Assembly (NCBI GenBank): GCA_964395625.1
Contig: CAYNAR010000003.1
Location: forward strand, 5,857-69,856
Direction of reading: 5' to 3'
From: an uncultured Gammaproteobacteria bacterium
GTDB taxonomy: Bacteria; Patescibacteriota; Patescibacteriia; Patescibacteriales; WJLG01
Length of the DNA: 64,000 bases
The position numbers and the translations under genes are program-made. Below, piece after piece: positions 22,796 to 63,048 of this stretch (positions are counted from its first letter, which is position 1; each line of letters opens with the position of its first letter). The notes under the pieces were generated by a model. That model ran no database searches. It was not told the DNA's origin and worked only from the letters and a program-made list of their open reading frames with translations.

Positions 22796-22840
22796 TTTTG
22801 ATTTGCTAGCGTGTTTATAAAAGTATATAATAATAACAAG

Positions 22841-24610: not shown

Positions 24611-24639
24611 AAGCCGCCGCTTTAAAAGGCGGCTTTTCT
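24611..24639 (+). terminator. Rho-independent terminator.
   Basis: agccgcc-gctttaaaa-ggcggct followed by tttt. Confidence 0.75.
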
Positions 24640-24645
24640 GAAAAA

Positions 24646-25323
24646 ATGAAACATCGTTTTTTATTGTTTTTTTTGTTGGTCGCCATGGCTCTGTCCGGGT
24701 GTTCTGCGGAAAAAAATAAGGATGTGTCCGAGCAAGACGACATTCTTTTGGCTCAGGATTGCGGTCTTGATCGTTTTCCTTGTTGCGCATCCGATCCGGT
24801 TTGTAATTTTGGTCAACAATGTTGCGTCGATCCTAATAATAGCAATCGTAATCATTGTGCGGATTCTTGCTCTTGTGGTAAGGAGGATGATTTTTGTTGC
24901 GAGGGGGGTAAGTGCTCGGAAGGGCTTGATTGTCGAGATGGTGTTTGCATTCGTTGCGGAAACGAAGGCGAGGCTTGTTGTCCGAAGGAGATCTCCTGTT
25001 CGGTCGGATTATCTTGTTTGAACGATGAATGCGTGAAATGCGGACTTGTCGGTAATCCTTGTTGTCAAGGTTCTGTTCCGTGTTTAGTCGGCGATGGCGA
25101 GAATAACGAGTGCTTCGCCGGTCTTTGTCGTAGTTGCGGATTTAATGGGGCTCCGGCTTGTGAAGGTGATAAACCGTGTCTTCCGGGGCAGCTATTGACC
25201 GGCAACCGTTGCGAGCGTTGTGGGCAGGATAATCAACCCTGTTGCGCCACATCGAGCGACGCAATTTATGCTTGCGACAAGAAAGCCGGTTTGTCTTGCA
25301 AGCTTGGTTTTTGCGAGAAGTAA
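24646..25323 (+). CDS. Cys-rich repeat lipoprotein with six ~28-35-aa 'CG....CC....C..G..C....C' units.
   Basis: Lipobox 'LVAMALSG|C'. Repeats start at CGLDRFPCC, CGKEDDFCC, CGNEGEACC, CGLVGNPCC, CGFNGAPAC and CGQDNQPCC. About 40 Cys occur in 225 aa. Confidence 0.8.
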   Translation: MKHRFLLFFLLVAMALSGCSAEKNKDVSEQDDILLAQDCGLDRFPCCASDPVCNFGQQCCVDPNNSNRNHCADSCSCGKEDDFCCEGGKCSEGLDCRDGVCIRCGNEGEACCPKEISCSVGLSCLNDECVKCGLVGNPCCQGSVPCLVGDGENNECFAGLCRSCGFNGAPACEGDKPCLPGQLLTGNRCERCGQDNQPCCATSSDAIYACDKKAGLSCKLGFCEK

Positions 25324-25397
25324 TTATTTTGCCACCGAGGTCTCAAAATGTTAAAATAGAAACATAATCCTTTTGTGTTTTAAGGTTTTTTGTTTAT

Positions 25398-26972: not shown

Positions 26973-26981
26973 TCATACTCT

Positions 26982-28898
26982 ATGACAAATAGTGAGATAA
27001 CGGTTTTTGCGGAAACGACTTTTCGCAACAAGCGTTTAAAATTCGGCATCAAGACGGACGATAGACGACGCCATATGTATGTGATCGGTAAGACTGGTAT
27101 GGGTAAGTCTACTATTTTGGAAAATATGATTGTCGACGATATCCGTGCCGGTAGGGGAGTGGCCGTCGTCGACCCTCATGGCGACTTGGCCGAGAAAATA
27201 ATGCAATTCATTCCTTCGGAGAGGGTGAAGGATATTATTTATTTCAATCCGGCCGATACGGAATTTCCTATCGCCTTCAATATCGTGGAGCAGGTGGACG
27301 CTAAGGTTCGCCATCTTGTCGCGTCCGGTTTGATAGGCGTTTTTAAGAAACTTTGGGCGGATTCTTGGGGTCCTCGTTTGGAATATATTTTGCGTAACGC
27401 CATCTTGGCGGTTTTGGATTATCCTAACTCAACCTTGCTTTCGGTTATACGTATGCTTTCGGATAAGGTCTATCGTAAGAAGATCGTCGATGCGGTTCAA
27501 GATCCGATGGTCAAATCGTTTTGGCAGAAGGAATTCGCCGGATACGCCGATAAATTTGCCTCTGAGGCCGTCTCTCCTATTCAAAACAAGGTCGGTCAAT
27601 TCTTGTCCAGTTCTTTGATTCGTAATATCATCGGTCAATCCAAATCTTCCATTGATGTCCGCAAGGCCATGGACGAGGGAAAAGTCTTGATCATGAATTT
27701 TTCCAAAGGGCATATAGGAGAGGATAATTCCGCCTTACTTGGTGCGATGATGATTACCAAGATACAGTTGGCGGCTATGAGTAGAGTTGACATACCGGAG
27801 AAGGAGAGGCGTGATTTCTATCTTTATATCGACGAGTTTCAGAACTTCTCTACCGATTCTTTCGCCAATATATTATCGGAAGCTAGAAAATATCACCTCA
27901 GTCTTATTATCGCTCATCAATATATAGAGCAGCTCACCGACACTGTCAAAGCGGCCGTATTCGGCAACGTCGGAACTTTAGTCTCCTTCCGTGTCGGCGC
28001 GGTCGACGCGGAGGAGCTCGTCAAAGAATTCGCCCCCGTCTTCACGGAGGAGGATATTTTGAATCTTCCTAAGTTTGAATTCTATATCAAGTTAATGATT
28101 GACGGTGTTGCCTCCACTCCGTTTTCGGCGAGAGGTCTTTTGCCTCTACGTGAAGACGAGAAGACTCATAATTTGGATAAAGCCGTCGAGTGGACAAGGA
28201 GGAATTACGCTAAAGAGAGGATATTGGTGGAGGAGGAGATTATGCATTCTCATTTTAACGATGATCAACCCATGGCTCATGTCGCTCCAGGGCAAGTTAT
28301 AAATATTCCTTCTCAACCGGCCTCTTTACCGCCGGTGATTAAGGGTGGTTTTCCTCCGGCCATAAAGAACTTCCCATCTTCACCTAGTCAAGCGCCTAGA
28401 GAAATTCCGTCGCCGAAAGAAGAGATAAAATCCATCGCATCGCATGTGGAAAATGTTCCGGTTCAAGCTCCGGTGATCCCAGTGGCTAAGCCTGTAATAA
28501 GGATAGATAAGGACAATTCATCGAGTATCCTCAATGAGGCGATTTGCTCTAATTGTGGTAGTCAGACCAAAGTTCCTTTTAAACCGGATGGCACCAGACC
28601 GATCTATTGTAAAAATTGCTTATCGGAATTGAAGAAGAAAAAGAAGGACGAGATGGACGAACGTAAAAATACGCCACGTCCTAATTTCTCGGAGATATCG
28701 CCATCCGCTTTGGGCAAGGAATTGGACGCCGAGCCGGTGGAAGCCTCAGGATTGTCTTTGTCGACGCTAAAAGAGTCGGCCCTTGTAAATTTTTCTAAAA
28801 ACAGCCATAATCATAAAAATCCATCGCAAGACATGCTTAAAGACGGTCAAATAAAAGAGAAAGAGTTGACCGAAGGCGAGGATATAATATTCGATTAA
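26982..28898 (+). CDS. VirD4/TraG/TraD-like (type IV coupling protein / HerA-FtsK superfamily) P-loop ATPase. It lacks N-terminal TM helices and carries a Pro-rich linker and a C-terminal CxxC..CxxC zinc ribbon.
   Basis: Walker A 'VIGKTGMGKST', 'VVDPHGDL', 'FNP.D.EFP(I)AFN', Walker B 'FYLYIDEFQNF' and 'IIAHQYIEQL' (TraG-D_C-like). C-terminal 'CSNCGSQTKVPFKPDGTRPIYCKNC'. Confidence 0.8.
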   Translation: MTNSEITVFAETTFRNKRLKFGIKTDDRRRHMYVIGKTGMGKSTILENMIVDDIRAGRGVAVVDPHGDLAEKIMQFIPSERVKDIIYFNPADTEFPIAFNIVEQVDAKVRHLVASGLIGVFKKLWADSWGPRLEYILRNAILAVLDYPNSTLLSVIRMLSDKVYRKKIVDAVQDPMVKSFWQKEFAGYADKFASEAVSPIQNKVGQFLSSSLIRNIIGQSKSSIDVRKAMDEGKVLIMNFSKGHIGEDNSALLGAMMITKIQLAAMSRVDIPEKERRDFYLYIDEFQNFSTDSFANILSEARKYHLSLIIAHQYIEQLTDTVKAAVFGNVGTLVSFRVGAVDAEELVKEFAPVFTEEDILNLPKFEFYIKLMIDGVASTPFSARGLLPLREDEKTHNLDKAVEWTRRNYAKERILVEEEIMHSHFNDDQPMAHVAPGQVINIPSQPASLPPVIKGGFPPAIKNFPSSPSQAPREIPSPKEEIKSIASHVENVPVQAPVIPVAKPVIRIDKDNSSSILNEAICSNCGSQTKVPFKPDGTRPIYCKNCLSELKKKKKDEMDERKNTPRPNFSEISPSALGKELDAEPVEASGLSLSTLKESALVNFSKNSHNHKNPSQDMLKDGQIKEKELTEGEDIIFD

Positions 28899-37686: not shown

Positions 37687-39875
37687 ATGAAAGCTCAGAG
37701 GCAACTCGATGATTTTTTCGCTTCTTGCGAGGAAAGTTCACTGGCGTTATTGGTGGATATAGTGAGTAAGGCAAAGGGGTCTTTGCGTAAGATTTTTAAT
37801 TTCAAGGGGGTTAGTCACGACGATCTTGTAGGTCGTTTAATGATCAGAGTTAATGATTTTTCTTATCAAGATGATGATATCGTGTTTAGCCGGTTGGTAG
37901 CAAAAGCTAAGTTTTGCGAAGCGACTTTTAAAGAGAGCGATAAGCACATGTGTCTTTTAGGTGCGATTCTTTCAACTCCCGAATCGGTGGCTTGCCACGT
38001 TTTGGAATCGATCGATGTCGATTGTGAAAAAATGCTTACGGATATTGCTAATGAATTTGAATTCGAAAAAGATATTTTTTATTTTAATTCTAAAGAGGAG
38101 TTTTCCATGAGTGATACAACAAGAGCTAAGAAGAAAAAGGTTTCGATAGCCGCTGACTATGGCGTTGATCTTACTGAAAGGTACAAGACGGAAGCGCCAA
38201 AAGCCTTCGTCTCTCGGGAAAAATATATTTCACAGCTAACAAGAATGCTTGGTCGCATGAATAAGAATAGCGTATTGGTGCTTGGCGGGTCCGGTGTCGG
38301 CAAGACGGCCTTAATCAACGAGTTGGCTTATCGCATAGCTACTGGAAAAATTGGTGGTTCTTTGGCGGAAATGAGTATATTCGAATTAAAATTCGAGGAG
38401 TCTGATGATTTACCGAAGAAATATAGCGAGATGTCGGATTTTGTTTCCAGAATAATGGGTTTGTTCGATGATTTGAGTAAGGTGGTTTTTTCGTTGATTG
38501 GCAAGAAGTGGTTTTGTCTGGCGCTAACAGCGATATCTTTACAACCTTCGATTTTTTAAATTCTATTAGCCCTGTTTTTCGTGAGTCTCGAGCCAGATTT
38601 ATCTTAGTCGGTCATTTTGACAGTTATGAAGAGTTTACCATGGATTTTCCGCAAGTTTCAGGATTGACCGGGGTTTTGAAAATCGAAGAAGCTTCGGAGA
38701 ATGAAACCGTGGATATGATGATGGCCAGAAAGTCTTCTTATGAGGATCACCATGGTGTGAAATTTTCCGAAAGTGCTATCCGCAAGATAATGACTCACAA
38801 TAAAGATGATTACGGTGGCGTATATTTGCCTGGCAGGGCTCTGGATATTTTAGACGATCTTGGTAGCGATTTTTCCAAGTCAGGAGTTGTCGAAATAGGC
38901 GAGGCGGAGGTCGAGTCGTTTTTTAAAGAAGATAAAGTTGCGACATCGGCTGTCGTTTCTGTGAAAGAAGGTTATGAAAGTAAGTTATCGAACCTGGCGA
39001 AAGAGCTAAAGAGCAGCGTTATAGGACAGGACTTGGCTTGCGAGCTGACCACTGATGCTATAATGGCGATAAATGATCCTGACAAGCCGATAGCTTCGCT
39101 TTTTTATGCCGGACCATCAGGCGTCGGTAAAACGCTTCTGGCTAGAAAATTGGCCGAGATACTTTTTGGCGATAGTGAAAGCTTTGCACGTTTTGATATG
39201 TCGGAATACTATGATAAGCATGAAATAGCTCGTTTGATTGGCTCTCCTCCGGGATATGTCGGATACGATGATGGCAGTAAGTTGGCCACACAGCTCAAAA
39301 AAAGACCGAACTCAGTCATTCTTCTCGATGAGATAGAAAAGGCCCACCATTCCATATTTGATATTTTACTGCAGATTATGGATTATGGTTCGTTGACTAA
39401 TGGCAGGGGCGATAGGATGTGTTTTAGAAAGAGCATTATAGTGATGACTTCTAATATCGATTTACGAAAGGGTCGTTCTATAGGTTTTTCTAAAGAGAAG
39501 AGCGATAAGGAGAAACGAATGGCTTTTGGTCAGGCTATGCAAGATCATTCATTCCGCAAAGAGTTCATAGGTCGTGTCGATCAGTTCGTCGAGTTTAGTC
39601 AGTTGTCTTCAGGCGACTTTTTAAAGATAGTCGATTTGGAGATCGCTAAAATCGCCGAGTGCGCTAAGAAAAGAGGATTGGGGAATTTGGTTTTTGGACA
39701 AGAGGCTAAGGAGCTTATTGTTGCCAGAAGCGAAACAAGCGAGTATGGTGCTAGAAACCTAAACAATACTTTGCTTAAATTGGTTCGCGTTCCTTTGGGT
39801 AAAATGTTGATTTGTGGTGGCCCCAAGGAAAAGATAGAAGTTTCGGCAAGTGATAATGGATTAGTGTTCATTTAA
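37687..39875 (+). pseudogene. ClpA/ClpC-family double-AAA+ chaperone ATPase interrupted by a frameshift in a T6 run (38486-38491). It is either a pseudogene or a homopolymer sequencing error.
   Basis: Frame A (37687-38559) has Clp_N-like repeats plus D1 Walker A 'LGGSGVGKTALINELAYRI'. Frame B (from about 38481 to 39875) has 'FFVDWQEVVLSGAN' (D1 Walker B region) and D2 'VIGQD.A', 'FYAGPSGVGKTLLARKLA', 'SEYYDKHEIARLIGSPPGYVGY', 'VILLDEIEKAH'. Adding one T gives the continuous sequence '..SKVVFFVDWQEVVLSG..'. Confidence 0.85.
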
Positions 39876-46149: not shown

Positions 46150-46182
46150 CTTATATTGGACAATAGAATTGATTTATTTTTA

Positions 46183-46211
46183 TTGACTTTTTATTATTTA
46201 TATGGTATACT
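46183..46211 (+). promoter_or_regulatory. Sigma-70-type promoter: TTGACT, 17-nt spacer, TGgTATACT (extended -10).
   Basis: ttgact-ttttattatttatatgg-tatact lies about 60 nt upstream of the ORF at 46274. Confidence 0.6.
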
Positions 46212-46273
46212 ATGGATAGAGTAATAAAAAAAGTTAATTAGAAATATAGAACATTAAAAAGGAGTAATAAATA

Positions 46274-46609
46274 ATGAAAACAGGGTATTTTTTGAAGAAG
46301 GACGCTGACTATGTCGTCAGTATGTCAAAGCCGGTGCCGTTCACTTGCTCTTTGGTGGTGCTACCATCGGAAAATATTATACTAATTAGTAAATTTGCTG
46401 GTGATAACGGTCTTTATCTGATTACTGTTTATGACAGTCTTGAAGATGTTCGTGCTAATTGGCCAAAAGTTTGTGGGGAATATCGCATAGCCCCGGCCAA
46501 TATAGTTTCTTTTAAAGAATCTAAAACGCCACCACCGGCAAATAGTGGGTCAAAAAAAACTGGGAGATGTCGTGATTTAGAAAAGTACAAGGAGTACATT
46601 CACCGCTAA
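46274..46609 (+). CDS. Hypothetical small protein (111 aa).
   Basis: Strong SD 'aaaaggag' 9 nt before the ATG, plus its own promoter and terminator. No recognisable motifs. Confidence 0.6.
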   Translation: MKTGYFLKKDADYVVSMSKPVPFTCSLVVLPSENIILISKFAGDNGLYLITVYDSLEDVRANWPKVCGEYRIAPANIVSFKESKTPPPANSGSKKTGRCRDLEKYKEYIHR

Positions 46610-46612
46610 CAA

Positions 46613-46650
46613 AAGCCTCGCCACTTCCATGTGTGCGAGGCTTTAAATTT
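46613..46650 (+). terminator. Hairpin terminator with a weak T-tract.
   Basis: aagcctcgc-cacttccatgtgt-gcgaggctt followed by taaattt. Confidence 0.55.
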
Positions 46651-46750
46651 GACTTTTTTTCTTATTTATGATTAAATATGACAAAAGGACTTTCCATCCT
46701 TTTGTTCGAACATTAAATATTCACAGTTTTATTTCCAAAAGGAGGATTTA

Positions 46751-48865: not shown

Positions 48866-48971
48866 ATGGTTATTCTTGGTTATTTAAGTTTTTCGCTGAT
48901 TATCATTATAGCACAATAAATAACGGGCAAAGAGCTTTGCTCGCTATCGGTTTTTCTGGTAAATTGTAAGA

Positions 48972-51437
48972 ATGGATTTCAATCAAGAACAAAAGGAAAT
49001 AATCGATAGCGTCTTCGGGGTCTATCTTCTTTCGGCTCCGGTAGGGACCGGCAAGACTACGGTTCTGACCGAGCGCGTGATCAAGGCCTTGGAGAATGGC
49101 GTCAAGCCGGAGGAAATTTTATGCCTCACTTTCACTAATCGCGCCGCCGAGGAGATGTCCGATCGCATTCGTGCTCGTGTCGGAAAGAAAGAAGTGAGCG
49201 ACTTGATAACTACCAAGACTTTTCATGGTTGGTGCGCTTATTTTTTGAAGGCCGAGGCCAAAGAGATCGGTTTATCGCGCGACTTCGCCATCTTCGAGGA
49301 AGAGGAGCAGCGTGAGGTGATGAGACAGATTTTGTCGAAACACCCGGAATTTCCTATTAATGAAGAAAAAGAAGGACGCGAGATATCGGAACTGATCGAG
49401 CGCATCTACGATTGGGAGTTGCTCAATTTGAAAAAGCAGATCGGTGTCAAGATAGAGGAGAAGGATTTAGACAAGACCGTGTCCGCCATCGCCGTCGAAT
49501 ATCGTCAGACACTTTCCGATCAGCACGCTTTGGATTTCAACGAGCTGGTGCTTTTGACTTTACGTGCTTTGTATTTGAATGAGAATATTAGGAAGAAATG
49601 GCAGGATAAATATCGTTTCGTGCAATTGGACGAATTTCAGGATACGCATTTGTCGGAATATTTGGTCGTTAAGGAATTGATTAAGAATCACAAGAATGCC
49701 GCATTTATCGGCGATTTGGACCAAACTATTTACTCTTGGCGCGGCAGTCAGCCGTTCTTTTTAAAGAAATTGATCCAAAGCCACTTTCCGGAGTTCAAGG
49801 AGATGAGTCTGACCACTAATTATCGTTTCAACCCCAATGTCCTATCGGCGGTAAAATCTTTTTTAGGTAGCTTCATTAAGCCGGAGACTAAAGAATTGAA
49901 GACTCTGAAGAGCGACGATGTGGTAGAGCCTGCCGTTTCTGTTTTTGGCGCTCACAATTTCAACGAAGAGATGTCTTACGTGATAGACAGGATAGAGAAG
50001 GTTAAAAAGGATAATCCCGATGAGCGATCCGTAGTCATCGCGCGCGCTAATTATTTGATTAATCGCGCCGCCGAGGTCTTCGAGCAAAAAGGCGTGGCTC
50101 ATATCACGGTTGATAAATACGAATTCTTCCGTCGTCAGGAGGTTAAGGATGTCTACGCTTATTTGAAGATAATCTTCAATCGTTTCGATTTGGAAGCCTC
50201 CTATCGTTTGGTCAAAAGGCCGCCGCGCAACATTGGTGCCACCACGATGAAAAACATCATTGATCAAGGTTCTTGCGGTCTTAAAGTTTCCGATTTTTTG
50301 AATTTCAGAAATTATAAATACCCAGAACCTTTTTTTGACTTGGCCAATCGTTTCGCCAAGGGTCGCGTAGTGGTTCTCGATACCGAGACTACCGGCACCG
50401 ACCCGTTTCGCGACGATATAATTCAGGTTTTTGCGGCTGAGGTCATTAATGGACAGGTCGGCCGTCGCTTCCATCATTATATGAAGAATGATGTGCCGGT
50501 CGGCTTTTCGGAGTCGGTTCACGGTATTTCCGATGAATTTTTGAAAGAGCAAGGCGAGGAGCCCGCTAAGATTTTGCAAGAATTGAAGGAATTTTTGGCC
50601 GACAGTCCGCCGATCGGTCATAACGTCAATTTCGACTTGGCGATGATCAGGGAGAACGGCAAGAGGCGAGGCGTGGATTTTGAATTCAAAGAATATTACG
50701 ATACGCTCGATTTGTCTCGTCGTTTAGTGGATTCGCCGAACTATCGTCTCGGAACCTTGTCCGAGATGTTCGGTCTCGCTAGTGCCACGCACGACGCGCG
50801 CGACGATGTGGATGCCACCATCGGTCTTCTCGGCGTGTTGGTGAGGATGCTGTCCAAAGGAGCGCCACAGCGCATGACTCTATGGCAAGAACATTCCGGC
50901 AAGTTTTTAAAGTTGGCCACTCTGATAGACTCATGGCAGAAGATAGTCGAACATTTGCGTCCGGCCGCGGTTTTGGAAAAGATTTGGGAAGAGTCCGGTC
51001 TACGCGAGTATTATGATAACGACGATGAAGCGGATAGACGACGTAAATCCGTAAAAGAATTGAAAGACGTGTTCGAGGAAAAGGATGATTCCGCGAAGAG
51101 GGCGGAAGCGTCTTTGCGAGAGTTGATCCATTACGCGGCCTTGGTCAAGGATATAAATTTCATCGGTCTGGAAAAAGGCAAAGTGCCGATAGTCACGGCC
51201 CATCAAGTGAAGGGTTTGGAGTTCGACCATGTCTTCGTCATCGGCGCTAACGAAAGGACTTTTCCCAATTATCGATCGGATTTGGAAGAGGAGAGGAGAT
51301 TGTTCTATGTCGCTCTGACGCGCGCCAAGAAAAAAATCTATTTGACGTATAGTAAGTTCAGTGATTACGGTTCACCGCAGGCGGCGAGCAGGTTTATCGA
51401 TTGTATCGATGAGAGGTATAAAGAAGTGGTTTTTTAA
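48972..51437 (+). CDS. UvrD/PcrA-family superfamily-1 helicase with an embedded DnaQ-like DEDDh 3'-5' exonuclease domain.
   Basis: Helicase motifs: 'APVGTGKTTVL', 'CLTFTNRAAEEM', 'VQLDEFQDT', 'IGDLDQTIYSWRG', 'TNYRF', 'TAHQVKGLEFDHVFVIG', 'RRLFYVALTRAKK'. Between motifs IV and V lie 'VVVLDTETTGTDP..DDIIQV', 'IGHNVNFDLAMI' and 'HDARDDVDAT', which are Exo I/II/III with His. Confidence 0.88.
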   Translation: MDFNQEQKEIIDSVFGVYLLSAPVGTGKTTVLTERVIKALENGVKPEEILCLTFTNRAAEEMSDRIRARVGKKEVSDLITTKTFHGWCAYFLKAEAKEIGLSRDFAIFEEEEQREVMRQILSKHPEFPINEEKEGREISELIERIYDWELLNLKKQIGVKIEEKDLDKTVSAIAVEYRQTLSDQHALDFNELVLLTLRALYLNENIRKKWQDKYRFVQLDEFQDTHLSEYLVVKELIKNHKNAAFIGDLDQTIYSWRGSQPFFLKKLIQSHFPEFKEMSLTTNYRFNPNVLSAVKSFLGSFIKPETKELKTLKSDDVVEPAVSVFGAHNFNEEMSYVIDRIEKVKKDNPDERSVVIARANYLINRAAEVFEQKGVAHITVDKYEFFRRQEVKDVYAYLKIIFNRFDLEASYRLVKRPPRNIGATTMKNIIDQGSCGLKVSDFLNFRNYKYPEPFFDLANRFAKGRVVVLDTETTGTDPFRDDIIQVFAAEVINGQVGRRFHHYMKNDVPVGFSESVHGISDEFLKEQGEEPAKILQELKEFLADSPPIGHNVNFDLAMIRENGKRRGVDFEFKEYYDTLDLSRRLVDSPNYRLGTLSEMFGLASATHDARDDVDATIGLLGVLVRMLSKGAPQRMTLWQEHSGKFLKLATLIDSWQKIVEHLRPAAVLEKIWEESGLREYYDNDDEADRRRKSVKELKDVFEEKDDSAKRAEASLRELIHYAALVKDINFIGLEKGKVPIVTAHQVKGLEFDHVFVIGANERTFPNYRSDLEEERRLFYVALTRAKKKIYLTYSKFSDYGSPQAASRFIDCIDERYKEVVF

Positions 51438-51459
51438 AGTTATTTTTCTTTTTCTTATT

Positions 51460-51497
51460 GCGAGCATTAAAAAATCTCCGTATTTTTCGATGCTCGC
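51460..51497. repeat. Palindromic intergenic repeat unit (GCGAGCATTAAAAAAT ... ATTTTTCGATGCTCGC).
   Basis: gcgagcattaaaaaat-ctccgt-atttttcgatgctcgc is a hairpin of about 16 bp with 2 mismatches, 23 nt after the helicase stop. The same half-site recurs at 54287, 54597 (inverted) and 56557. Confidence 0.8.
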
Positions 51498-51582
51498 AGT
51501 AATGTAAGAAAAATAAATAAAGTATTTTATTTTTCATTTTTATTTTGATATAATTTATAATTCATAACTCATAATCGACCAT

Positions 51583-51936
51583 ATGTCACAAATACAAGAG
51601 ATTTTCGACCGCTTACAAAAATTCAAGGGCGAGCAGAAAGAGTTAAAGACTATGTATCGCGATGCTCTAAGAAACAGCGCCGAGTATCAAAAGGTCTCGG
51701 AAGAATTGAACAAGTTGAAGGAAGAGAAGAAATCCATCGAGGCCAAGGTTAAAGAGGAATTCGCCAGAGAGATGGACAAGATGGAGGTTTTGAGCAACGA
51801 GATAAAGAACGATAATCAAGTCTTGTCCGATGCGGCCATGGCTAAGGTGGCAAAGGGTGAGAAGATAGAGATTCGTGATGAATACGAGAATGAATATGAG
51901 CCGATATTTAGCGTGAAATTCAAGAAGATGGGTTAA
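51583..51936 (+). CDS. Hypothetical K/E-rich coiled-coil protein (117 aa).
   Basis: The ORF shows heptad-like 'KELKTMYRDALRNSAEYQKVSEELNKLKEEKKSIEAKVKEEFAREMDKMEVLSNEIK'. Confidence 0.6.
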   Translation: MSQIQEIFDRLQKFKGEQKELKTMYRDALRNSAEYQKVSEELNKLKEEKKSIEAKVKEEFAREMDKMEVLSNEIKNDNQVLSDAAMAKVAKGEKIEIRDEYENEYEPIFSVKFKKMG

Positions 51937-52052
51937 TAGAAAGCGTTGGTTTTCGCACCCTTTTATAATAATATTTACCTAATATAAGGTAAGTATTATT
52001 TATTTTTATTAAAAATGACTTTGTGCGGAAAGTTTTTTTGATGGTATTTTAT

Positions 52053-52081
52053 TGACATTTATGACAATATGTGCTATATTT
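52053..52081 (+). promoter_or_regulatory. Near-consensus sigma-70 promoter: TTGACA, 17-nt spacer, TATATT.
   Basis: ttattgaca-tttatgacaatatgtgc-tatatt lies about 110 nt upstream of the ATG at 52191. Confidence 0.65.
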
Positions 52082-52190
52082 TATTGAATATAGTATTTTG
52101 GAAAACTATATTCAAAAAGGTCAAAAGCCTTTAATTGAACCTTGAAAATAAAAAATAATACATAACATACCCCCCCACAAGGAGTTGAAG

Positions 52191-53228
52191 ATGAAACTTG
52201 AACTGTTCACATCCATTGTCGTAGCAACATTATTTTTTATGTTGCTAAGTGAGGACGATCTCCCCACTAAAGAAGAAAGTGGGGGGATGTTCGAAGGAAG
52301 GAGTTTTGGAGCTGTCGAAGCTTCCGTGGTTAGTCAGTCCGTTACTAACGCAATCGACTCCTTGAAGATAGTTAAAATCAAAAAAGCCGATTCTGTTTTG
52401 GCGGAAAAACCAATAGTAATAGTGTCTCACAAACCAAAGTCTTCTCTGAACACGTCACGTAAACCAACAAAAATAAACGACCACTGGAAAGACAGAAAAA
52501 GAAAACACATTAAAATGACTGTTGGTCAGAAAAAGAAGCTATTTAGAGATCTTTTCGGTTGGTTGATTCTTGAAAGGTTGGTTAGTGAGGGTGTTGTAAG
52601 CGCTGATGTATTGCACAGAGATTCATTAGCGATCGAGCGTTTTATCGATACTTCCGTGCATATGTCAGTACTTCTTTCTTTGCCGGCTCAAGAGTCTGGT
52701 TATAACCCATTCATCAAGAATGTCGGATCTAGCGCTAGGGGGTTTTACCAGTTTATTAACGACACTGGAAAGAAGATGTGTGAAGAGCTTGGAATAGACG
52801 TAAAATCCTATGACCCTTACAACCCATATCAGAATGTTACGCTTGGCGTTCATTTGTATGTCCGGAGTTTGAAGAAATTCAGGAGCGTCAATTGGGCAAT
52901 TGGTGTTCATCATGATGGTGAAGGTGGTGTTTACGACACTAATAGGGTTTATGGTGGTATTGATAAAAACCCTTTTGTTTTAGCTGTTCGTGGTGCGATG
53001 AAGATAAAGTATAAGGAACCTCCGGAAGAGGCGTATCGCTTATGGCAAGAAGAGATAATGTCATACAATTGCTTAGAGTGTGTCGAGTATTATTCTTCAT
53101 TGAAAGACACGACGAAAATTCAAGTGGTCGACACTTCCTTTGTTCCTAGGGATACTGTAATGATGCCATTGATGGTAAAAGAAAAATCTTTAGTCACAAA
53201 AGAAGTTTTATCTCGTACATTTTTTTGA
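52191..53228 (+). CDS. Membrane-anchored lytic transglycosylase (SLT-domain-like) protein.
   Basis: ATG 52191 lies 7 nt after GGAG; the ORF-track start at 52185 is TTG. TM 'LFTSIVVATLFFMLL'. 'LPAQESGYNPFIKNVGSSARGFYQFI' matches the SLT catalytic E-S ... G(L/F).Q pattern. Confidence 0.7.
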   Translation: MKLELFTSIVVATLFFMLLSEDDLPTKEESGGMFEGRSFGAVEASVVSQSVTNAIDSLKIVKIKKADSVLAEKPIVIVSHKPKSSLNTSRKPTKINDHWKDRKRKHIKMTVGQKKKLFRDLFGWLILERLVSEGVVSADVLHRDSLAIERFIDTSVHMSVLLSLPAQESGYNPFIKNVGSSARGFYQFINDTGKKMCEELGIDVKSYDPYNPYQNVTLGVHLYVRSLKKFRSVNWAIGVHHDGEGGVYDTNRVYGGIDKNPFVLAVRGAMKIKYKEPPEEAYRLWQEEIMSYNCLECVEYYSSLKDTTKIQVVDTSFVPRDTVMMPLMVKEKSLVTKEVLSRTFF

Positions 53229-53233
53229 CAATT

Positions 53234-53260
53234 AGCCCTGAAGTGATTCGGGGCTTTTTT
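53234..53260 (+). terminator. Rho-independent terminator.
   Basis: gccctg-aagtgatt-cggggc followed by tttttt. Confidence 0.7.
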
Positions 53261-53261
53261 A

Positions 53262-53290
53262 TTGACATTTTATATATTTTATGATATAAT
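53262..53290 (+). promoter_or_regulatory. Consensus sigma-70 promoter: TTGACA, 17-nt spacer, TATAAT.
   Basis: ttattgaca-ttttatatattttatga-tataat lies about 85 nt upstream of the ATG at 53376. It shares the 'TTTTATTGACATTT' context with the promoter at 52053. Confidence 0.7.
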
Positions 53291-53375
53291 ATAGGTATAA
53301 GTCGAAGGTATTTTAGTTAATAAAAACGGCTTATATTACAGCACATTAAAAAAGAATAATAAAAAAGGAGAAAGT

Positions 53376-54212
53376 ATGAAAAGTGCGAAAGAAAAGGTAG
53401 AGGTTTATTTTATGGTATTTTTGTTGATTTTTGAGAGGCTATTCGAACCTGTATTTGGTTTTTTGAGGAGGCATCTTGGCTGGATAGTAGTGATTATTTT
53501 GGTCGGCATTCTGGTTATGATGCCCGAAAAAGACAAGACGGATGTAGTCAAAGATGTAGCGATTGTTCAGGCTTCGGTCGGTATCGGTGAGTTTGCCCCT
53601 ATCACGGAGGAGCGCGAGAAGGAGGTGGCATCCTATTTGCAAAAAGCCAGAGCTGCCATCATGCAAGCTCGGAAATTTCTCTCAGCCAGTATCGATAAGA
53701 GTGCTGTCGTTGTTAGCCATAATAAGAGTTATGAATATTTATTGGATTTCGTTCGAAACAATAAGTATGACAAGTCTTTTGATAAGGCTTTGAAGGAGTA
53801 TGGCTTCTTGATAGAAGCGGAGATTGGTCGTTATCCTGGTACGAAGATAACGAAAAATCTTGTCGCTGCCATGATAGCTCATGAGTCGCGTTGCGATCCT
53901 GATATAATTGGCCGAGATGGTGAGCTTGGTTTGATGCAAATCTTACCGAAAACAGCCGCTCACTTTGGCTACACCAACAAGGAAGACGTAAAGGATCCAG
54001 CTATTAACATTCATATTGGTGTCATGTATCTTGCTCAGCTAGAGAAGAATATGGGGTCTTTGCCTAAAGCGTTATCCGGCTATAACAGAGGAGAAGAAGG
54101 TGCCAAGGATAAAATTGCCACGAATCCTGATTACGCATTGACATATGACTATGTCGAAAGCGTAAGAGCCATTCTGGAAATTTCCGGTGAAGATAAGTCG
54201 ATTCTCCTTTAA
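53376..54212 (+). CDS. Membrane-anchored lytic transglycosylase (SLT domain).
   Basis: SD 'aaaaaggag'. TM 'WIVVIILVGILVMM'. 'MIAHESRCDPDIIGRDGELGLMQILPKTA', 'NIHIGVMYLAQL' and 'ALSGYNRGE' are canonical SLT motifs. Confidence 0.85.
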   Translation: MKSAKEKVEVYFMVFLLIFERLFEPVFGFLRRHLGWIVVIILVGILVMMPEKDKTDVVKDVAIVQASVGIGEFAPITEEREKEVASYLQKARAAIMQARKFLSASIDKSAVVVSHNKSYEYLLDFVRNNKYDKSFDKALKEYGFLIEAEIGRYPGTKITKNLVAAMIAHESRCDPDIIGRDGELGLMQILPKTAAHFGYTNKEDVKDPAINIHIGVMYLAQLEKNMGSLPKALSGYNRGEEGAKDKIATNPDYALTYDYVESVRAILEISGEDKSILL

Positions 54213-54236
54213 ATTTCTTTTTTGTACATTCAATCG

Positions 54237-54266
54237 CCCTGCTGTGGAATATCAGCAGGGTTTTTA
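54237..54266 (+). terminator. Rho-independent terminator.
   Basis: ccctgctg-tggaatat-cagcaggg followed by ttttt. Confidence 0.85.
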
Positions 54267-54286
54267 TTTATTGCTTTTTCCTTGTG

Positions 54287-54612
54287 GCGAGCATTAAAAA
54301 ATTAGGAAGAGACCGTAGACGTAAAAACCGTGTCCCGTCTGCGGGACTAGGTTTTATAGACGAAGGTCCCTAATTTTTCGCCGCGAGCTACTTTTTGGTA
54401 CTTTTTTGAAAAGTACATATAAAAAAATGTATTTATCTCGCCACTTTTCAAAAAGTGGCACAAAACTGCTCACAGAAAAAATCTCCTAATTCTCACTAGG
54501 AAGCCTAGTAAATTTTCTATACTCACCCCGACCTCAAGGGCTCGGGGCTCAAACAACGAAAATTTACACGGCTTCTACGTTCGCATTTTAACGTAGATTT
54601 TTTAATGCTCGC
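54287..54612. repeat. 326-bp non-coding element bounded by perfect 16-bp terminal inverted repeats (GCGAGCATTAAAAAAT / ATTTTTTAATGCTCGC) and packed with internal hairpins. It may be MITE-like or a nested REP-like element.
   Basis: TIRs at 54287-54302 and 54597-54612, with a degenerate internal right end 'atttttcgccgcgagc' at about 54374-54389. Internal hairpins: gtcccg-tctg-cgggac, gtactttt-ttg-aaaagtac, gccacttt-tcaa-aaagtggc, ctagg-aag-cctag, ccccga..tcgggg, ctacgt..acgtag. There is no ORF. Confidence 0.7.
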
Positions 54613-54728
54613 TATAAGGAAGATAAGACACGTGATGTTTATTTATTTTATTTGTATAGCACAATAAAGATTTTCTTGCTAAATTTTCAACGTTTAGTTA
54701 ATATTAAATTAAACATTATATTATTTTT

Positions 54729-56546
54729 ATGAAACCTCAAGAACTACGCCAAAAGTACTTAGATTTTTTTAAAGAAAACGGACATTCCGCCATAAAAAGC
54801 GCCTCTTTGATACCGGAAAACGACCCGACAGTGCTTTTTACTACCGCTGGCATGCATCCTTTAGTGCCTTATTTGATGGGCGAGACCCATCCGGCCGGTA
54901 AACGCTTGGTCGATGTCCAGAAATGCGTCCGCACCGACGATATCGAAGAGGTTGGTGATAATCGCCATTTGGTTTTCTTTGAGATGATGGGTAATTGGTC
55001 GCTTGGTGATTATTTTAAGCAAGATTCTATAAAATGGAGCTTCGAGTTTTTGACTTCGCCGAAATGGCTGGGTTTGGATATTAATCGTCTGGCCGTCTCC
55101 GTCTTTGCCGGTGATAATGACGCCCCTTTCGATCAGGAGGCCTTCGACCTTTGGAAAGAACTTGGTATTCCGGAGAAGAGGATTGCTAAATTGCCAAAAA
55201 AGAACAACTGGTGGGGTCCGGCTGGCGTGACTGGTCCATGTGGCCCGGATACGGAAATATTTTACTGGACGGGGGATGCCGACAAGACGCCAGAAAGTTT
55301 CAATGATGACAATGACCTTTGGGTGGAGATTTGGAACAACGTCTTCATGCAATATAACAAGAAGGCCGATGGCACTTTCGAGCCTTTGGCGCAGAAGAAT
55401 GTGGATACCGGAATGGGCATGGAGAGAATTTTTACCGTAATAAAAGGCCAAAAAACTGTCTTTGATACCGATTTATTTCAACCATTGATAAAGAAGGTCG
55501 AGGAATTGTCCGGTAAAAAATACGGGGAGAACGAGGAAGACGACCGTTCTTTTAGGATTATCGCCGATCATTTACGCTCTTCCGTGTTTATAATAGGAGA
55601 CGAAAGAGGAGTTCCGCCGAGTAATACCGGTGCCGGTTATATCGTTCGCCGTTTGCTTCGCCGTGCCGTGGTCCACGGTCGTCGCTTGAATATATCCGCT
55701 TCCGCATGGCTTTCTTCCGTCGCCGAGATGGTTATTGGTGACTATAATGAGGCCTACCCTGAATTATTAGCCAATAAGGAGTTTATTTTAAATAATGTTA
55801 GCGAGGAAGAGTCGAAGTTTGAAAAGACATTGGAGAATGGTCTTAAAGAGTTCAATCAGCAATGCGAAACTTTGACTTGCAAGATGGAAGATAGTGACGA
55901 CATAAGTGTCACCATTCCCGGCGATATGGCCTTTATGATGTTCTCTACTTTTGGTTTTCCTATAGAATTGATCAGGGAGATCGCCAAAGATAAGAAAATG
56001 ACCATCGACGAAGCCGGTTTTGCCGAGGAATTCAAGAAGCATCAAGAGCTTTCTCGCACAGCTTCCGCTGGTATGTTTAAAGGTGGTTTGGCTGATGCTA
56101 GCGAAGAGACAAGGCGTTTGCATACCGCCGCCCACCTTCTTTTGGCTTCTTTGCGTCGTGTTCTTGGTCCTCATGTTCTTCAAAAGGGTAGTAATATAAC
56201 GGCGGAACGTCTGCGTTTCGACTTCTCTCATGGTGAAAAGATGACTTCCGAGCAAATCGCCGAAGTGGAGAGAATGGTCAATGAGACTATAGACAAGGAT
56301 TTGCCGATCGTTTGCGAAGAGAAAACTCTGGAGGAGGCCAGGAACCAGGGCGCGATGGGTGTCTTCGATTCTAAGTATGGGGAGATGGTCAAGGTTTATA
56401 AGGTGTGTTCCGGGGACGAAGTCGTCTCTTGCGAGATATGCGGTGGTCCTCATGCCGAGCGCACCGGCGAACTCGGTCATTTCAAAATAGCGAAGGAGGA
56501 GAGCTCTTCCTCTGGTGTGCGTAGAATAAAAGCCATTCTGGATTGA
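54729..56546 (+). CDS. alaS: Alanine--tRNA ligase, short form (catalytic, tRNA-recognition and editing domains; no C-Ala domain).
   Basis: 'LRQKYLDFFKENGH..I.SASL(I)P.NDPT(V)LFT.AGM..(L/F).PY(L)' and 'RHL.FFEMMGNWS(L)GDYFK'. Editing-site 'HTAAHLL' and 'CGGPH'. It has 605 aa and ends shortly after the editing domain. Confidence 0.93.
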   Translation: MKPQELRQKYLDFFKENGHSAIKSASLIPENDPTVLFTTAGMHPLVPYLMGETHPAGKRLVDVQKCVRTDDIEEVGDNRHLVFFEMMGNWSLGDYFKQDSIKWSFEFLTSPKWLGLDINRLAVSVFAGDNDAPFDQEAFDLWKELGIPEKRIAKLPKKNNWWGPAGVTGPCGPDTEIFYWTGDADKTPESFNDDNDLWVEIWNNVFMQYNKKADGTFEPLAQKNVDTGMGMERIFTVIKGQKTVFDTDLFQPLIKKVEELSGKKYGENEEDDRSFRIIADHLRSSVFIIGDERGVPPSNTGAGYIVRRLLRRAVVHGRRLNISASAWLSSVAEMVIGDYNEAYPELLANKEFILNNVSEEESKFEKTLENGLKEFNQQCETLTCKMEDSDDISVTIPGDMAFMMFSTFGFPIELIREIAKDKKMTIDEAGFAEEFKKHQELSRTASAGMFKGGLADASEETRRLHTAAHLLLASLRRVLGPHVLQKGSNITAERLRFDFSHGEKMTSEQIAEVERMVNETIDKDLPIVCEEKTLEEARNQGAMGVFDSKYGEMVKVYKVCSGDEVVSCEICGGPHAERTGELGHFKIAKEESSSSGVRRIKAILD

Positions 56547-56556
56547 TTTTGCTAAT

Positions 56557-56573
56557 CGCGAGCATTGAAAATT
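56557..56573. repeat. Variant half-site of the GCGAGCATT(A/G)AAAAT repeat family.
   Basis: gcgagcattgaaaattt lies 11 nt after the alaS stop. No inverted partner was seen nearby. Confidence 0.55.
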
Positions 56574-56743
56574 TCAGAGGTGTTGTTTTATGTGGTTTCT
56601 TGTACAAGGAGGTGTCGGCGAATAATCATGCCGATATGTGTTTTTTGAAAGCTTACGAAAGGTTTTAAAGGAAACGTTTTTTAAAAGTCTGTTTACTAAT
56701 ATTAGTGAAAAAAAGATTATTGTCTTTTTCCACTGGATAGAGC

Positions 56744-56772
56744 TTGACAATTAAACAAAACTTCTATATAAT
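56744..56772 (+). promoter_or_regulatory. Consensus sigma-70 promoter (TTGACA, 17-nt spacer, TATAAT) for the infA-rpmJ-rpsM-rpsK-rpsD-rpoA-rplQ operon.
   Basis: ttgaca-attaaacaaaacttcta-tataat lies about 85 nt upstream of infA. Confidence 0.7.
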
Positions 56773-61122: not shown

Positions 61123-61935
61123 ATGATCGGTGTCTTCGATTCCGGTGTCGGCGGCTTGACTGTCCTCAAATCTTTGTTGGAGTATTTGCCAGATTACGAC
61201 TATATTTATTTAGGCGACAATGGTCGCGCGCCATACGGAAATAAAACTAAAGAGCAGGTCTACGAGTATACCCGCCAAGCGGTCGATTTTTTATTCAGAC
61301 AAGGTTGCGACTTAATCGTCGTGGCGTGCAATACCGCTTCGGCTTTGGCTTTGCGCAAAATCCAGCAAAGCTATCTGCCGAAGAAATATCCTGGCAAGAG
61401 AGTCTTGGGTGTGGTGCGTCCGATGGCCGAGGCGATCGCCGACTTACACGGCATCGAGAAGGTCGGAATAATCGCGACCAAGGCTACGATAGCTTCGCAT
61501 ATCTATCACCACGAGATGAGGAAGCTGAGTTCTAGCAAACATGTAATAAGTCGAAGTGCCCCTTTGCTTGTCCCATTGATCGAGGGCGGTTCCACGGACG
61601 AAGCGAAGATCGAGGATGTTTTGAACGGATATTTATCACCACTCAAGAAAGAGAGAGTCCAAGCTTTGGTTTTAGGTTGTACGCATTATCCTTATTTACA
61701 AGATCAGATTTGCCAAATAATGGGTAAGGGTTGTAAAGTGTATAATTCCGGAGAGATAGTCGCCAAATCTTTAAAGGATTATTTGCGTCGTCACAAGGAA
61801 TTGGGCGTCAAGAGATCGATGAAATCGAAAGTGGAGTTTTATACGACCGGGAATGCCGAGAAGTTCAAGTCGCTAGGGGAGAGGTTTTTGAATAAGAGAA
61901 TCGTAAAAATTAAGAATGTCGATTTGAAATGGTAG
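61123..61935 (+). CDS. murI: Glutamate racemase.
   Basis: 'IGVFDSGVGGLTVL', 'Y.YLGDN.R.PYG.K', 'VVACNTASA', 'LGCTHYP'. Confidence 0.93.
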   Translation: MIGVFDSGVGGLTVLKSLLEYLPDYDYIYLGDNGRAPYGNKTKEQVYEYTRQAVDFLFRQGCDLIVVACNTASALALRKIQQSYLPKKYPGKRVLGVVRPMAEAIADLHGIEKVGIIATKATIASHIYHHEMRKLSSSKHVISRSAPLLVPLIEGGSTDEAKIEDVLNGYLSPLKKERVQALVLGCTHYPYLQDQICQIMGKGCKVYNSGEIVAKSLKDYLRRHKELGVKRSMKSKVEFYTTGNAEKFKSLGERFLNKRIVKIKNVDLKW

Positions 61936-61959
61936 GGGTAAAAAAATAATATTTTCAGT

Positions 61960-63048
61960 ATGGATAATTTGTTGGATAGGATAAATAGTCTAAAAAAACG
62001 CTTGGCTGATGTCTGGCGCGTTTTGAATTTGGAGGATTCGAAGGCTAAACTGATCGAGAAGCGTAAGGTTATGGAAGAAGCGGATTTTTGGTCCGATCAG
62101 GAGAGGGCGGTTAGGGTCAGTAAAGAGGCGGAGGATTTGGATAAAGAAACGAAGAAATGGGATGGAATCAAGTCGGAGATGGATAATCTATTCGATTTGG
62201 TCAATGAGGCAATAAGCGAAGAGGATAATTCTTTGGAAAAGGAGATAAATAGCAGTTTGACCGACTTGGAGAAGCGTTTCGAGGATTTGGAATTCTTCGC
62301 TTTGTTTTCCGGCAAGTACGATCGTAATAACGCGATACTTTCTATCCATGCCGGTACCGGTGGCGTGGACGCACAGGATTGGGCGCAGATGCTCGAGCGT
62401 ATGTATTTGCGTTTCTTCGAGAGTAAAGAGTGGCGCGCGGAAATACTCGATTTGACTCCCGGCAACGAGGCCGGCATCAAGAGCGTCACGATAAAAGTCG
62501 ATGGTCTGTGGGCCTTCGGGCACTTGCGCTCCGAGGCCGGCGTCCATCGCTTGGTGCGCATCTCGCCGTTCGACGCCGAGGCGATGCGCCAGACTTCTTT
62601 CTCCTTAGTCGATGTGATGCCGGAGTTCGACGACGTCGACGATATCGATGTTCCCGATATCGATTTGAAATTGGAGACTTATCGTTCTTCTGGTGCCGGA
62701 GGTCAGAATGTCAATAAGGTCGAGACGGCCGTGCGTTTGATTCATATACCGACCGGAATCACGGTCAATTGTCAGACTCAGCGTTCACAGCATCAGAATC
62801 GTGAGCTGGCTTTGCGTCTCTTGAAGTCTAAGTTGAAAGAAAAGCAATTAGCCGAGCAGTCGGCCGAGCAGAAAGAGGTGCGTGGCGAGGTGCATAAGGC
62901 CGAGTGGGGGAGACAGATCCGCTCTTACGTCCTACAACCTTATCAGATGGTCAAAGATCATCGCACCGAGCATGAGACTTCGGACGTTCGATCGGTCTTA
63001 GACGGCGATATCGATTTATTCATCGAAGCTTATCTGAAGATGAAATAA
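61960..63048 (+). CDS. prfB: Peptide chain release factor 2, a single continuous ORF with no programmed +1 frameshift site.
   Basis: 'SPF' tripeptide ('VRISPFDA') and '[16 protein letters not shown](L)IH.PTGI'. The N-terminal region is in frame from the ATG at 61960. Confidence 0.92.

Follow-up and report, generated by a model that had tools for sequence, protein, structure and literature searches.

The 64-kb stretch of DNA analysed here (the window) belongs to a Patescibacteria (CPR) bacterium. In one part of it the gene for a UvrD-like helicase is followed by the hyp117-SLT-SLT operon and then by alaS, and arms of one palindromic repeat are found in gaps between these genes. The repeat takes the form of a bare hairpin after the helicase gene (site A), a mosaic between the second SLT gene (SLT2) and alaS (site B), and a lone arm after alaS (site C). 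The features are collected in Table 1.

Table 1. Coordinates of the repeat sites, their parts and the neighbouring signals
Feature	Position	Strand	Description
Helicase stop codon	51435-51437		
Site A	51440-51516		77-nt imperfect palindrome after the UvrD-like helicase
Site A, core arm	51460-51475	+	16-mer, exact
Site A, core arm	51482-51497	-	16-mer, 2 mismatches
hyp117 promoter	51546-51554		TGATATAAT
Terminator (window scan)	53234-53255		
SLT2 intrinsic terminator (window scan)	54236-54261	+	canonical; directly upstream of site B
Site B	54263-54626		~360 bp mosaic between SLT2 terminator and alaS promoter
Left arm	54263-54307	+	T-rich outer part, then core 54287-54302 (16-mer, exact)
Hairpin insert	54308-54395		~90 nt; window-specific, absent from the orthologous element of L143 (alignment)
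Degenerate inverted arm	54373-54388		ATTTTTCGCCGCGAGC, within the hairpin insert
Module M	54396-54465		two perfect palindromes
Module M palindrome	54398-54416		GTACTTTTTTGAAAAGTAC
Module M palindrome	54440-54459		GCCACTTTTCAAAAAGTGGC
G-unit	54466-54626		inner degenerate arm, internal hairpins and right arm
Inner degenerate arm	54468-54486		GCTCACAGAAAAAATCTCC
Long internal hairpin	54500-54575		
Small hairpin	54574-54597		
Right arm	54597-54621	-	core 54597-54612 (16-mer, exact)
alaS promoter, predicted	54676-54704	+	TTGCTA-17 nt-TAATAT; directly downstream of site B
Site C	56545-56578	+	single arm in the predicted alaS 3' UTR
Site C, core	56558-56573	+	GCGAGCATTGAAAATT; 16-mer, 2 mismatches
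alaS terminator (window scan)	56612-56637		downstream of site C

The core of the repeat is the 8-mer GCGAGCAT, of which the window holds five copies, every one inside 51460-56573. The longer 16-mer GCGAGCATTAAAAAAT occurs three times exactly and twice with 2 mismatches; when up to 3 mismatches are allowed, seven matches are found in the window against 1.43 expected, a number reached by none of 100 shuffles. The copies reported in the first-pass annotation are real, and the last of them, placed there at 56557, begins at 56558. A profile search of the window with the five arms returned the same five at E<1e-6, the next best match not falling below E ~1. Two further claims held in part: the degenerate copy placed at about 54374 is present and matches 12 of 16 bases, but is not significant alone and lies in the insert absent from the sister species described below, and the 'tgctcgctat' placed at about 48939 is found at 48938-47, but as a 10-nt identity only, with no profile match. 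The half-sites described there are likewise real but belong to longer arms than claimed (32 nt at site A, 25 nt at site B). The repeated arm, of about 30-45 nt, consists of a T-rich outer part and then GCGAGCAT[T/C][A/G]AAAAAT, and two arms in inverted orientation form a hairpin. As had been noted, the sites lie just after stop codons, with cores starting 22 nt past that of the helicase, 74 nt past that of SLT2 and 11 nt past that of alaS.

At site A the core arms, and equally the full 32-nt arms, enclose a 6-nt loop, CTCCGT. The RNA fold has a free energy of -31.0 kcal/mol (z -8.4), and the site is unchanged in four further Logan contigs. An intrinsic terminator is a G+C-rich stem with a T-run directly after it; since the stem of site A is followed by AGTAATGTAAG, with no T-run, site A is not a canonical intrinsic terminator, and the arms of sites A and B were not listed by the terminator scan of the window, which gave the three terminators of Table 1. 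A TAAAG(T) repeat next to site A was weighed as a target-site duplication, but it is short and AT-rich, with an offset of 1 nt.

Site B is bounded by inverted end arms of 25 nt, 92% complementary and 294 nt apart, which enclose further palindromes. Its arms follow one another in the order +, (-), (+), - at irregular spacing, with the module M palindromes between them; both inner arms are degenerate and lack significance by themselves, and the inner arm of the G-unit pairs with the right arm. The two palindromes of module M, GTAC-TTTT..AAAA-GTAC and GCCAC-TTTT..AAAA-GTGGC, have a common half-site, ACTTTT/AAAAGT. On the plus strand the whole site has a folding energy of -128.7 kcal/mol (z -12.1); on the minus strand the fold gives z -10. 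Its left arm overlaps the T-tract of the SLT2 terminator. Because it is placed after this canonical terminator, site B does not define the end of the SLT2 transcript, and most transcripts would never contain it. The predicted alaS promoter beyond it is not among the promoter-scan listings; it is 89% identical in the sister species and is kept in the window and in four of five relatives, repeat-free ones included. Site C has no convincing partner arm (fold z 0.06) and is absent from the alaS-infA gap of the sister.

The sequence read amounted to about 66 kb of the host genome and about 19 kb of the sister genome, and the copies seen span one neighbourhood of about 8 kb. Arms occupy three of five consecutive gaps, and three of the 18 gaps of the window in all; no arm was found in the remaining 15 window gaps of at least 60 nt, nor in about 13 kb downstream in the contig of the sister species. 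Non-random clustering of the three loci is only suggestive, because three loci within five consecutive gaps of 18 give p ~0.09 by hand count. In genome contigs, the bare 16-mer gave, among the matches listed, single chance matches in unrelated taxa. The hairpin pattern and the 22-nt arm pattern had no exact match in JGI metagenomes or IMG/VR; both patterns do not fit the arm variant of the sister species, which the 22-nt pattern missed because that arm reads GCGAGCGTT. Site B gave no match in a distant BLAST search of phage and plasmid records, and none of the six small ORFs inside site B, looked up exactly as a proxy for extra copies, is on record.

The window was compared with a sister species represented by two contigs, L141 and L143, from one and the same JGI sample. 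Its AlaRS and hyp117 are each 94% identical to those of the window, and its helicase C-terminus 85%. In the alignment, L143 carries an orthologous site B with its parts in the same order (left arm at 1014-1044, module M 81% conserved, G-unit 82% identical), and site B was already present in the common ancestor of the two species. The sister carries a second copy, of at least 150 nt, after the helicase gene, where module M and the G-unit have also been copied, and the family occupies this gap in both species. Module M is present twice in L141, and the L141 copy has lost its whole central hairpin (about 75 nt). Arms, module M and G-unit are 80-82% identical between window and sister, against 50% at 214 four-fold sites of alaS; the adjoining SLT2 DNA is 69% identical. 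The element is conserved far above neutral.

In a consensus structure of the three copies, four of 44 pairs are changed on both sides and remain paired, in the long internal hairpin and between inner arm and right arm, and two are broken by a mismatch. The elements are kept as hairpins whose stems are repaired through paired substitutions, a pattern that can also arise without structural selection, when the arms of a DNA palindrome undergo gene conversion with each other. The sister's own two copies are 96.5% identical over 143 columns, while each is 79-80% identical to site B of the window; sequence therefore passes, by duplication or gene conversion, between copies within one genome in gaps about 3 kb apart. 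A conspecific strain (99.5% identical) has three SNPs within 12 nt of the left arm of site B (54284, 54286 and 54295), two of which make the arms of site B perfectly complementary; over 46.72-60.43 kb only two other differences, at 54052 and 54075, are found nearby.

More distant relatives keep the gene order, lack the motif and carry unrelated palindromes in the same gaps, one of which occurs at non-orthologous gaps in two relatives (z 22). Homology of site B to these palindromes is not supported, no alignment beating shuffles. One relative, L135, has a different pair of alaS promoter boxes and no palindrome in the site B gap, so that the element is not essential there. That the two gaps share one family in every case is contradicted by L123, whose two palindromes are unrelated. 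A division into two arm types, with site B inverted relative to site A, is weak because the site A loop is common to both arms; site A cannot be reliably aligned to the L141 composite.

We interpret the three sites as members of a low-copy, lineage-restricted family of extragenic palindromic (fold-back) elements, closest to ERIC/BIME-type elements, whose hairpins are maintained and whose copies spread locally, and we give this reading about an even chance of being right. Since copies exchange sequence between nearby gaps, their spread would be a matter of local copying and not of visible genome-wide transposition.

The three sites could instead be a sample of many, drawn from a classical dispersed REP/BIME or MITE family, that is, non-autonomous hairpins moved by a transposase (RAYT, IS200/IS605-type Y1 or other) encoded elsewhere, which we think rather unlikely. 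In a BIME, REPs alternate in orientation at regular spacing and are joined by other conserved motifs; a MITE has terminal inverted repeats, a target-site duplication, numerous copies scattered over the genome and an autonomous IS relative that shares its ends. In site B alternating arms form a mosaic with other palindromic motifs, and its terminal inverted repeats are MITE-like; the sister's long second copy lies at a different gap, and site C occurs only in the host species. The clustered SNPs of one arm point to conversion from a further copy, and an unrelated palindrome family is found in gaps that are not orthologous in two relatives. Species specificity is common among REP families (PMC2817692). 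A REP is a small (20-40 bp) imperfect palindrome, extragenic and mostly 3' of coding regions, with GTAG or CGTC as an unpaired tag at one of its ends (PMC3733652), and site A has this size and placement (16-nt core arms and 6-nt loop, 38 bp in all, 22 nt past the helicase stop). Yet the tag is absent from the flanks of the arms of sites A and B: no GTAG/CGTC is consistently present, the only GTAG, at 54592-54595, being GGAG in both the orthologous and the paralogous copy of the sister. REPs usually exceed 100 copies per genome, and the gene of the cognate RAYT, a Y1 transposase, has REPs on its flanks (PMC2817692; for REP, BIME and REPIN elements with RAYT transposases see also PMC3116915 and PMC3733652). 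Here the other gaps of the window and the sister contig hold no arm, the metagenome and viral collections gave no exact match to two specific patterns, no IS was found in the window, and Pfam detected no transposase or Y1 domain in 38 of its 46 protein-coding ORFs, so that the RAYT that the first-pass annotation suggested looking for did not turn up among the scanned proteins. A target-site duplication at site B is refuted as well: the 10-nt direct repeat TTTATTTATT lies at 54263 and 54638, but the right copy belongs to a window-specific 34-nt block absent from the ortholog.

Improbable, in our view, is that the module M palindromes and the GCGAGCAT arms act at the DNA level as protein-binding sites, operators for a dimeric regulator or nucleoid protein controlling the hyp117-SLT-SLT operon and alaS. 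In its favour, perfect palindromes of 19-20 nt are shared by three copies from two species and lie upstream of promoters, the copies cluster around one operon in both species, and their conservation is well above neutral. Against it, the promoters stand at varying distances, module M is missing from site A, and the motifs are missing from relatives that have these genes and promoters; no regulator gene is adjacent, and operators do not require the compensatory changes. These changes, together with the ~81% conservation and the strong fold (z -12 for the plus and -10 for the minus strand), would suit a structured non-coding RNA gene or cis-regulatory leader formed by module M and the G-unit (about 230 nt), with the arms part of the fold; a weak promoter-like site on the minus strand (54690-54661) is directed into site B, with a terminator-like hairpin at 54347-54332. 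This we hold to be very unlikely, as both strands fold equally well, the element neither contains nor adjoins a conserved promoter, the L141 copy lacks the central hairpin, and site B stands upstream of the conserved alaS promoter and is for that reason not an alaS leader. For this element no Rfam family reached its gathering score, and even at E up to 10 no credible match came up, the window as a whole giving only two tRNAs; T-box and known sRNAs were not found, and the best score in 54200-54740 was 23 bits against a cut-off of 101. A T-box leader was rejected on this ground and by the position of the promoter, a DNA uptake sequence by its far too low density, an integron attC by the flanked genes, which are syntenic housekeeping genes, and a tyrosine-recombinase core site by an architecture that fits site A only.

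The local fold-back family that we favour does not amount to a new kind of system. In enterobacteria, ERIC (IRU) elements are imperfect palindromes of about 127 bp, of low to moderate copy number, with size variants created by indels and interspecies conservation above neutral, and are thought to form RNA hairpins in transcribed gaps. The present elements resemble them as extragenic imperfect palindromes of roughly 80-350 bp and low to moderate copy number, with size variants from internal insertions and deletions and conservation between species above the neutral rate, and they may likewise act as RNA hairpins in transcribed gaps. They differ in host phylum, in the confinement of the copies to one neighbourhood and in the position of site B after a terminator, and there is no apparent sequence relationship, ERIC being set apart here by its description and not by its sequence. 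The REP/BIME-like character proposed in the first-pass annotation survives as an extragenic palindromic family at 3' ends of transcription units, species-restricted, with a BIME-like mosaic at site B in which arms of alternating orientation are mixed with other motifs; unlike in REP, BIME and REPIN elements, a consistent tag and a RAYT in the window are missing, the 16-nt core on its own forms no palindrome, and more than 100 copies per genome are not in evidence, the local data speaking against a high density. Nothing in the sequence read shows the genome-wide family of REP type envisaged there; the copies in it are confined to one region, the very outcome that the annotation had set against such a family. 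Site B is also like the Correia elements of Neisseria, which are MITEs, in its length of about 350 bp, its 25-nt terminal inverted repeats, AT-richness, fold-back potential and place between genes, but it has no target-site duplication, no parent IS is known, and it is orthologous and conserved in the sister and not a presence/absence insertion.

As members of such a family, the elements would put stable hairpins into the stretch that separates a transcription unit's end from the promoter that follows. The hairpin of site A may shield the 3' end of the helicase mRNA or determine where it lies, the arm of site C would lie within the 3' UTR of alaS, and the hairpins of site B might block read-through from the SLT operon into alaS. 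Because the sites fold equally well on both strands, RNA and DNA hairpins are indistinguishable here. We suggest tentatively, and with more doubt than confidence, that module M and the G-unit are not merely a selfish repeat and form a selected, function-bearing element specific to this Patescibacteria clade, acting as a hairpin insulator, 3'-end element or small RNA and retained by the streamlined genome at the borders of the hyp117-SLT-SLT operon.

Small size and tight packing characterise Patescibacteria genomes. A literature search on Patescibacteria found no extragenic repeat family described, in agreement with the first-pass annotation. As this case shows, the few long gaps of such genomes contain palindromic elements with turnover from lineage to lineage, copies within a genome exchange sequence, and at least one element has been kept about 81% identical where neutral sites have fallen to 50%; this makes the element a concrete candidate for a hairpin cis-element or RNA in an uncultivated lineage. 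Its practical value is modest: repeat-rich gaps are the most informative places for comparative alignment between species, and the element could serve as a marker that tells close species apart.

The three loci carrying the repeated arm, the unit that contains the 16-mer core, are site A, a hairpin after the helicase gene, site B, a mosaic in the gap between SLT2 and alaS, and site C, a lone arm after alaS. They lie in the order UvrD-type helicase, site A, hyp117, SLT1, SLT2, site B, alaS, site C, infA and ribosomal protein genes, and the best AlaRS and helicase matches are all from Patescibacteria (CPR). Plus-strand genes follow one another closely, and only 18 gaps in the window reach at least 60 nt, summing to ~3.0 kb; the three loci fall inside 5 of these 18 (clustering, p ~0.09 by hand count). 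The 16-mer repeats at several sites described in the first-pass annotation are confirmed by counts, shuffles, an 8-mer and a profile. At up to three mismatches, 7 matches were observed in the 64-kb window against 1.43 expected, a count reached by no shuffle; all five occurrences of the 8-mer GCGAGCAT in the window are arm sites at A, B and C; and a profile of the five arms with their flanks recovered exactly those five (E<1e-6) and nothing else in the window. The arms are longer than described there, 32 nt around a 6-nt loop at site A and 25 nt, 92% complementary and spaced by 294 nt, at site B. A 'degenerate' copy at 54373-54388 (12/16 matching) and a related tgctcgctat at 48938, also listed in that annotation, are not significant alone.

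Positions of the repeat loci, core copies and site B components in the window
Feature	Position	Strand	Description
Site A	51440-51516		between helicase stop and extended -10 promoter TGATATAAT
Site B	54263-54626		between canonical SLT2 terminator (54236-54261) and putative alaS promoter TTGCTA-17 nt-TAATAT
Site C	56545-56578		alaS 3' UTR, upstream of alaS terminator
Core GCGAGCATTAAAAAAT	51460	+	exact
Core GCGAGCATTAAAAAAT	51482	-	two mismatches
Core GCGAGCATTAAAAAAT	54287	+	exact
Core GCGAGCATTAAAAAAT	54597	-	exact
Core GCGAGCATTAAAAAAT	56558	+	two mismatches
Site B, module M	54396-54465		two perfect palindromes
Perfect palindrome	54398-54416		GTAC...GTAC
Perfect palindrome	54440-54459		GCCAC...GTGGC
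Site B, G-unit	54466-54626		inner arm, internal hairpin, right arm
Inner arm	54468-54486		degenerate
Internal hairpin	54500-54575		long

The predicted fold of site A is a 77-nt hairpin of -31.0 kcal/mol (z -8.4), with nearly equal stability on the opposite strand and no T-run 3' of it. Site B spans 344 nt between its arm ends, has a fold of -128.7 kcal/mol (z -12.1) and runs from the left arm through a hairpin insert of 90 nt, the two perfect palindromes, the degenerate inner arm and the long internal hairpin to the right arm. Fold analysis gave no convincing partner arm for site C, and an Rfam search of the window returned two tRNAs only, with no credible match for site B.

The repeat family is real and predates the split between the window species and its sister, represented by two contigs of one JGI sample, L141 and L143, which we treated as one genome given their shared sample and their comparable closeness to the window (AlaRS 94%, hyp117 94%, helicase C-terminus 85% identical). 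L143 carries an orthologous site B with its parts in identical order, with neither the 90-nt insert nor a 34-nt block 3' of the right arm. Its left arm, module M and G-unit are 80%, 81% and 82% identical to those of the window and its alaS promoter 89%, compared with 50% for alaS four-fold sites (n=214) and 69% for SLT2 DNA. Folding the three available copies to a consensus gave 44 pairs, of which 4 have changed on both sides with pairing kept, including an A-U to G-C change between inner and right arms, and 2 are broken by mismatch. The hairpins have been kept at a level well above neutral. Furthermore, copies exchange sequence within one genome: the helicase-hyp117 gap of L141 holds a second copy of module M and the G-unit ends, 96.5% identical to the L143 copy, whereas each is only 79-80% identical to site B of the window. 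Site C is absent from the sister, where no further arm occurs in ~13 kb downstream. The SLT genes (52185-54212) evolve much faster than their neighbours in this comparison (SLT1 49% protein, SLT2 ~69% DNA identity, against 94% for AlaRS and hyp117) and are lower in G+C (38% vs ~44%).

All three sites are present on a conspecific contig (99.5% identical), which has three SNPs in a 12-nt stretch of the left arm of site B, two of them turning G.T pairs into perfect pairs; the only other nearby differences are at 54052 and 54075, the rest of 46.72-60.43 kb being identical. Overall, differences from this strain fall into three tight clusters (46158-46720, 54052-54295 and 61146-62050), with none or almost none over the several kb between them, and they look like recombination tracts rather than scattered point mutations.

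Five more distant relatives (AlaRS 80-82% identical; three span all of hyp117-infA, the others part) keep the gene order and lack the motif. Their equivalent gaps hold unrelated palindromes or segments bounded by inverted repeats, except in one relative, which has none, and no alignment of these palindromes to site B was better than shuffles. One palindrome, a hairpin with 47-53-nt arms, is common to two species (z 22), lying upstream of alaS in L123 (9811-9908) and of the helicase in L127 (246-355), so palindromic elements change gaps in this clade. A further family is built on AACAT[A/G]GAGCA (L123 7732-7813, L127 20765-20828).

The putative alaS promoter is present in the window and four of the five relatives. 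The 14-mer TATAGCACAATAAA lies just upstream of putative -35 boxes of the helicase and alaS promoters (48908-48921 and 54655-54668), its alaS copy within the 34-nt block missing from the sister. A box, TAATATTAG[T/C], at ~56700-56712, ~40-50 nt upstream of a perfect infA promoter (TTGACA-17 nt-TATAAT, 56744-56772), is kept in nearly all relatives amid sequence that cannot be aligned (alaS-infA gaps of L123, L127, L132, L133, L135 and L143, with variants in L133 and L135). A 7-nt unit (TATAATT/CATAATT) is arrayed upstream of hyp117 (51547-51575); its arrays are inverted on both flanks of the sister gene (L141 2574-2609 and 2953-2998), and in L127 (11823-11935) they flank a box upstream of the infA promoter.

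Among other genes of the window, the UvrD/PcrA-type helicase (48972-51437) contains, as an insertion at residues 467-619, a 3'-5' exonuclease domain of RNase_T type, a fusion conserved in many Patescibacteria homologues. Two plus-strand ORFs that overlap in different frames (37687-38559 and 38508-39875) jointly resemble one ClpB-type AAA+ chaperone, with an AAA_16 N-terminal part followed by AAA_2 with ClpB_D2-small; the cause may be a frameshift, a gene split in two or misassembly. Across 6-11909 and 22811-28898 we noted a 3967-residue ORF at the left end, and cohesin- and Ig-like domain proteins adjoining a TrwB/VirD4-like coupling ATPase, which may form a surface or secretion apparatus cluster.

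The REP/BIME-like reading first proposed gains partial support, from architecture and location, and none from dispersal, tags or a transposase. The behaviour of the family resembles that of ERIC or BIME elements. REP sequences usually exceed 100 copies per genome (PMC2817692); the window family differs from them in having no consistent GTAG/CGTC tag (PMC3733652) and no RAYT in view, the Pfam scan of 38 window proteins giving no transposase or RAYT domain, and from MITEs in having no target duplication. The patterns tried did not detect the species in the metagenome collection. RNA and DNA hairpins are indistinguishable here: the two strands fold equally well, and conversion between arms can look like compensatory change. 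Every copy seen lies inside the helicase-to-infA neighbourhood and this, together with the age of the family, the above-neutral maintenance of its hairpins and exchange within one genome, agrees with an extragenic palindromic family of low copy number, restricted to its lineage and spreading by local duplication or conversion. Its most likely role would lie between transcription units, as insulator or 3'-end hairpins.
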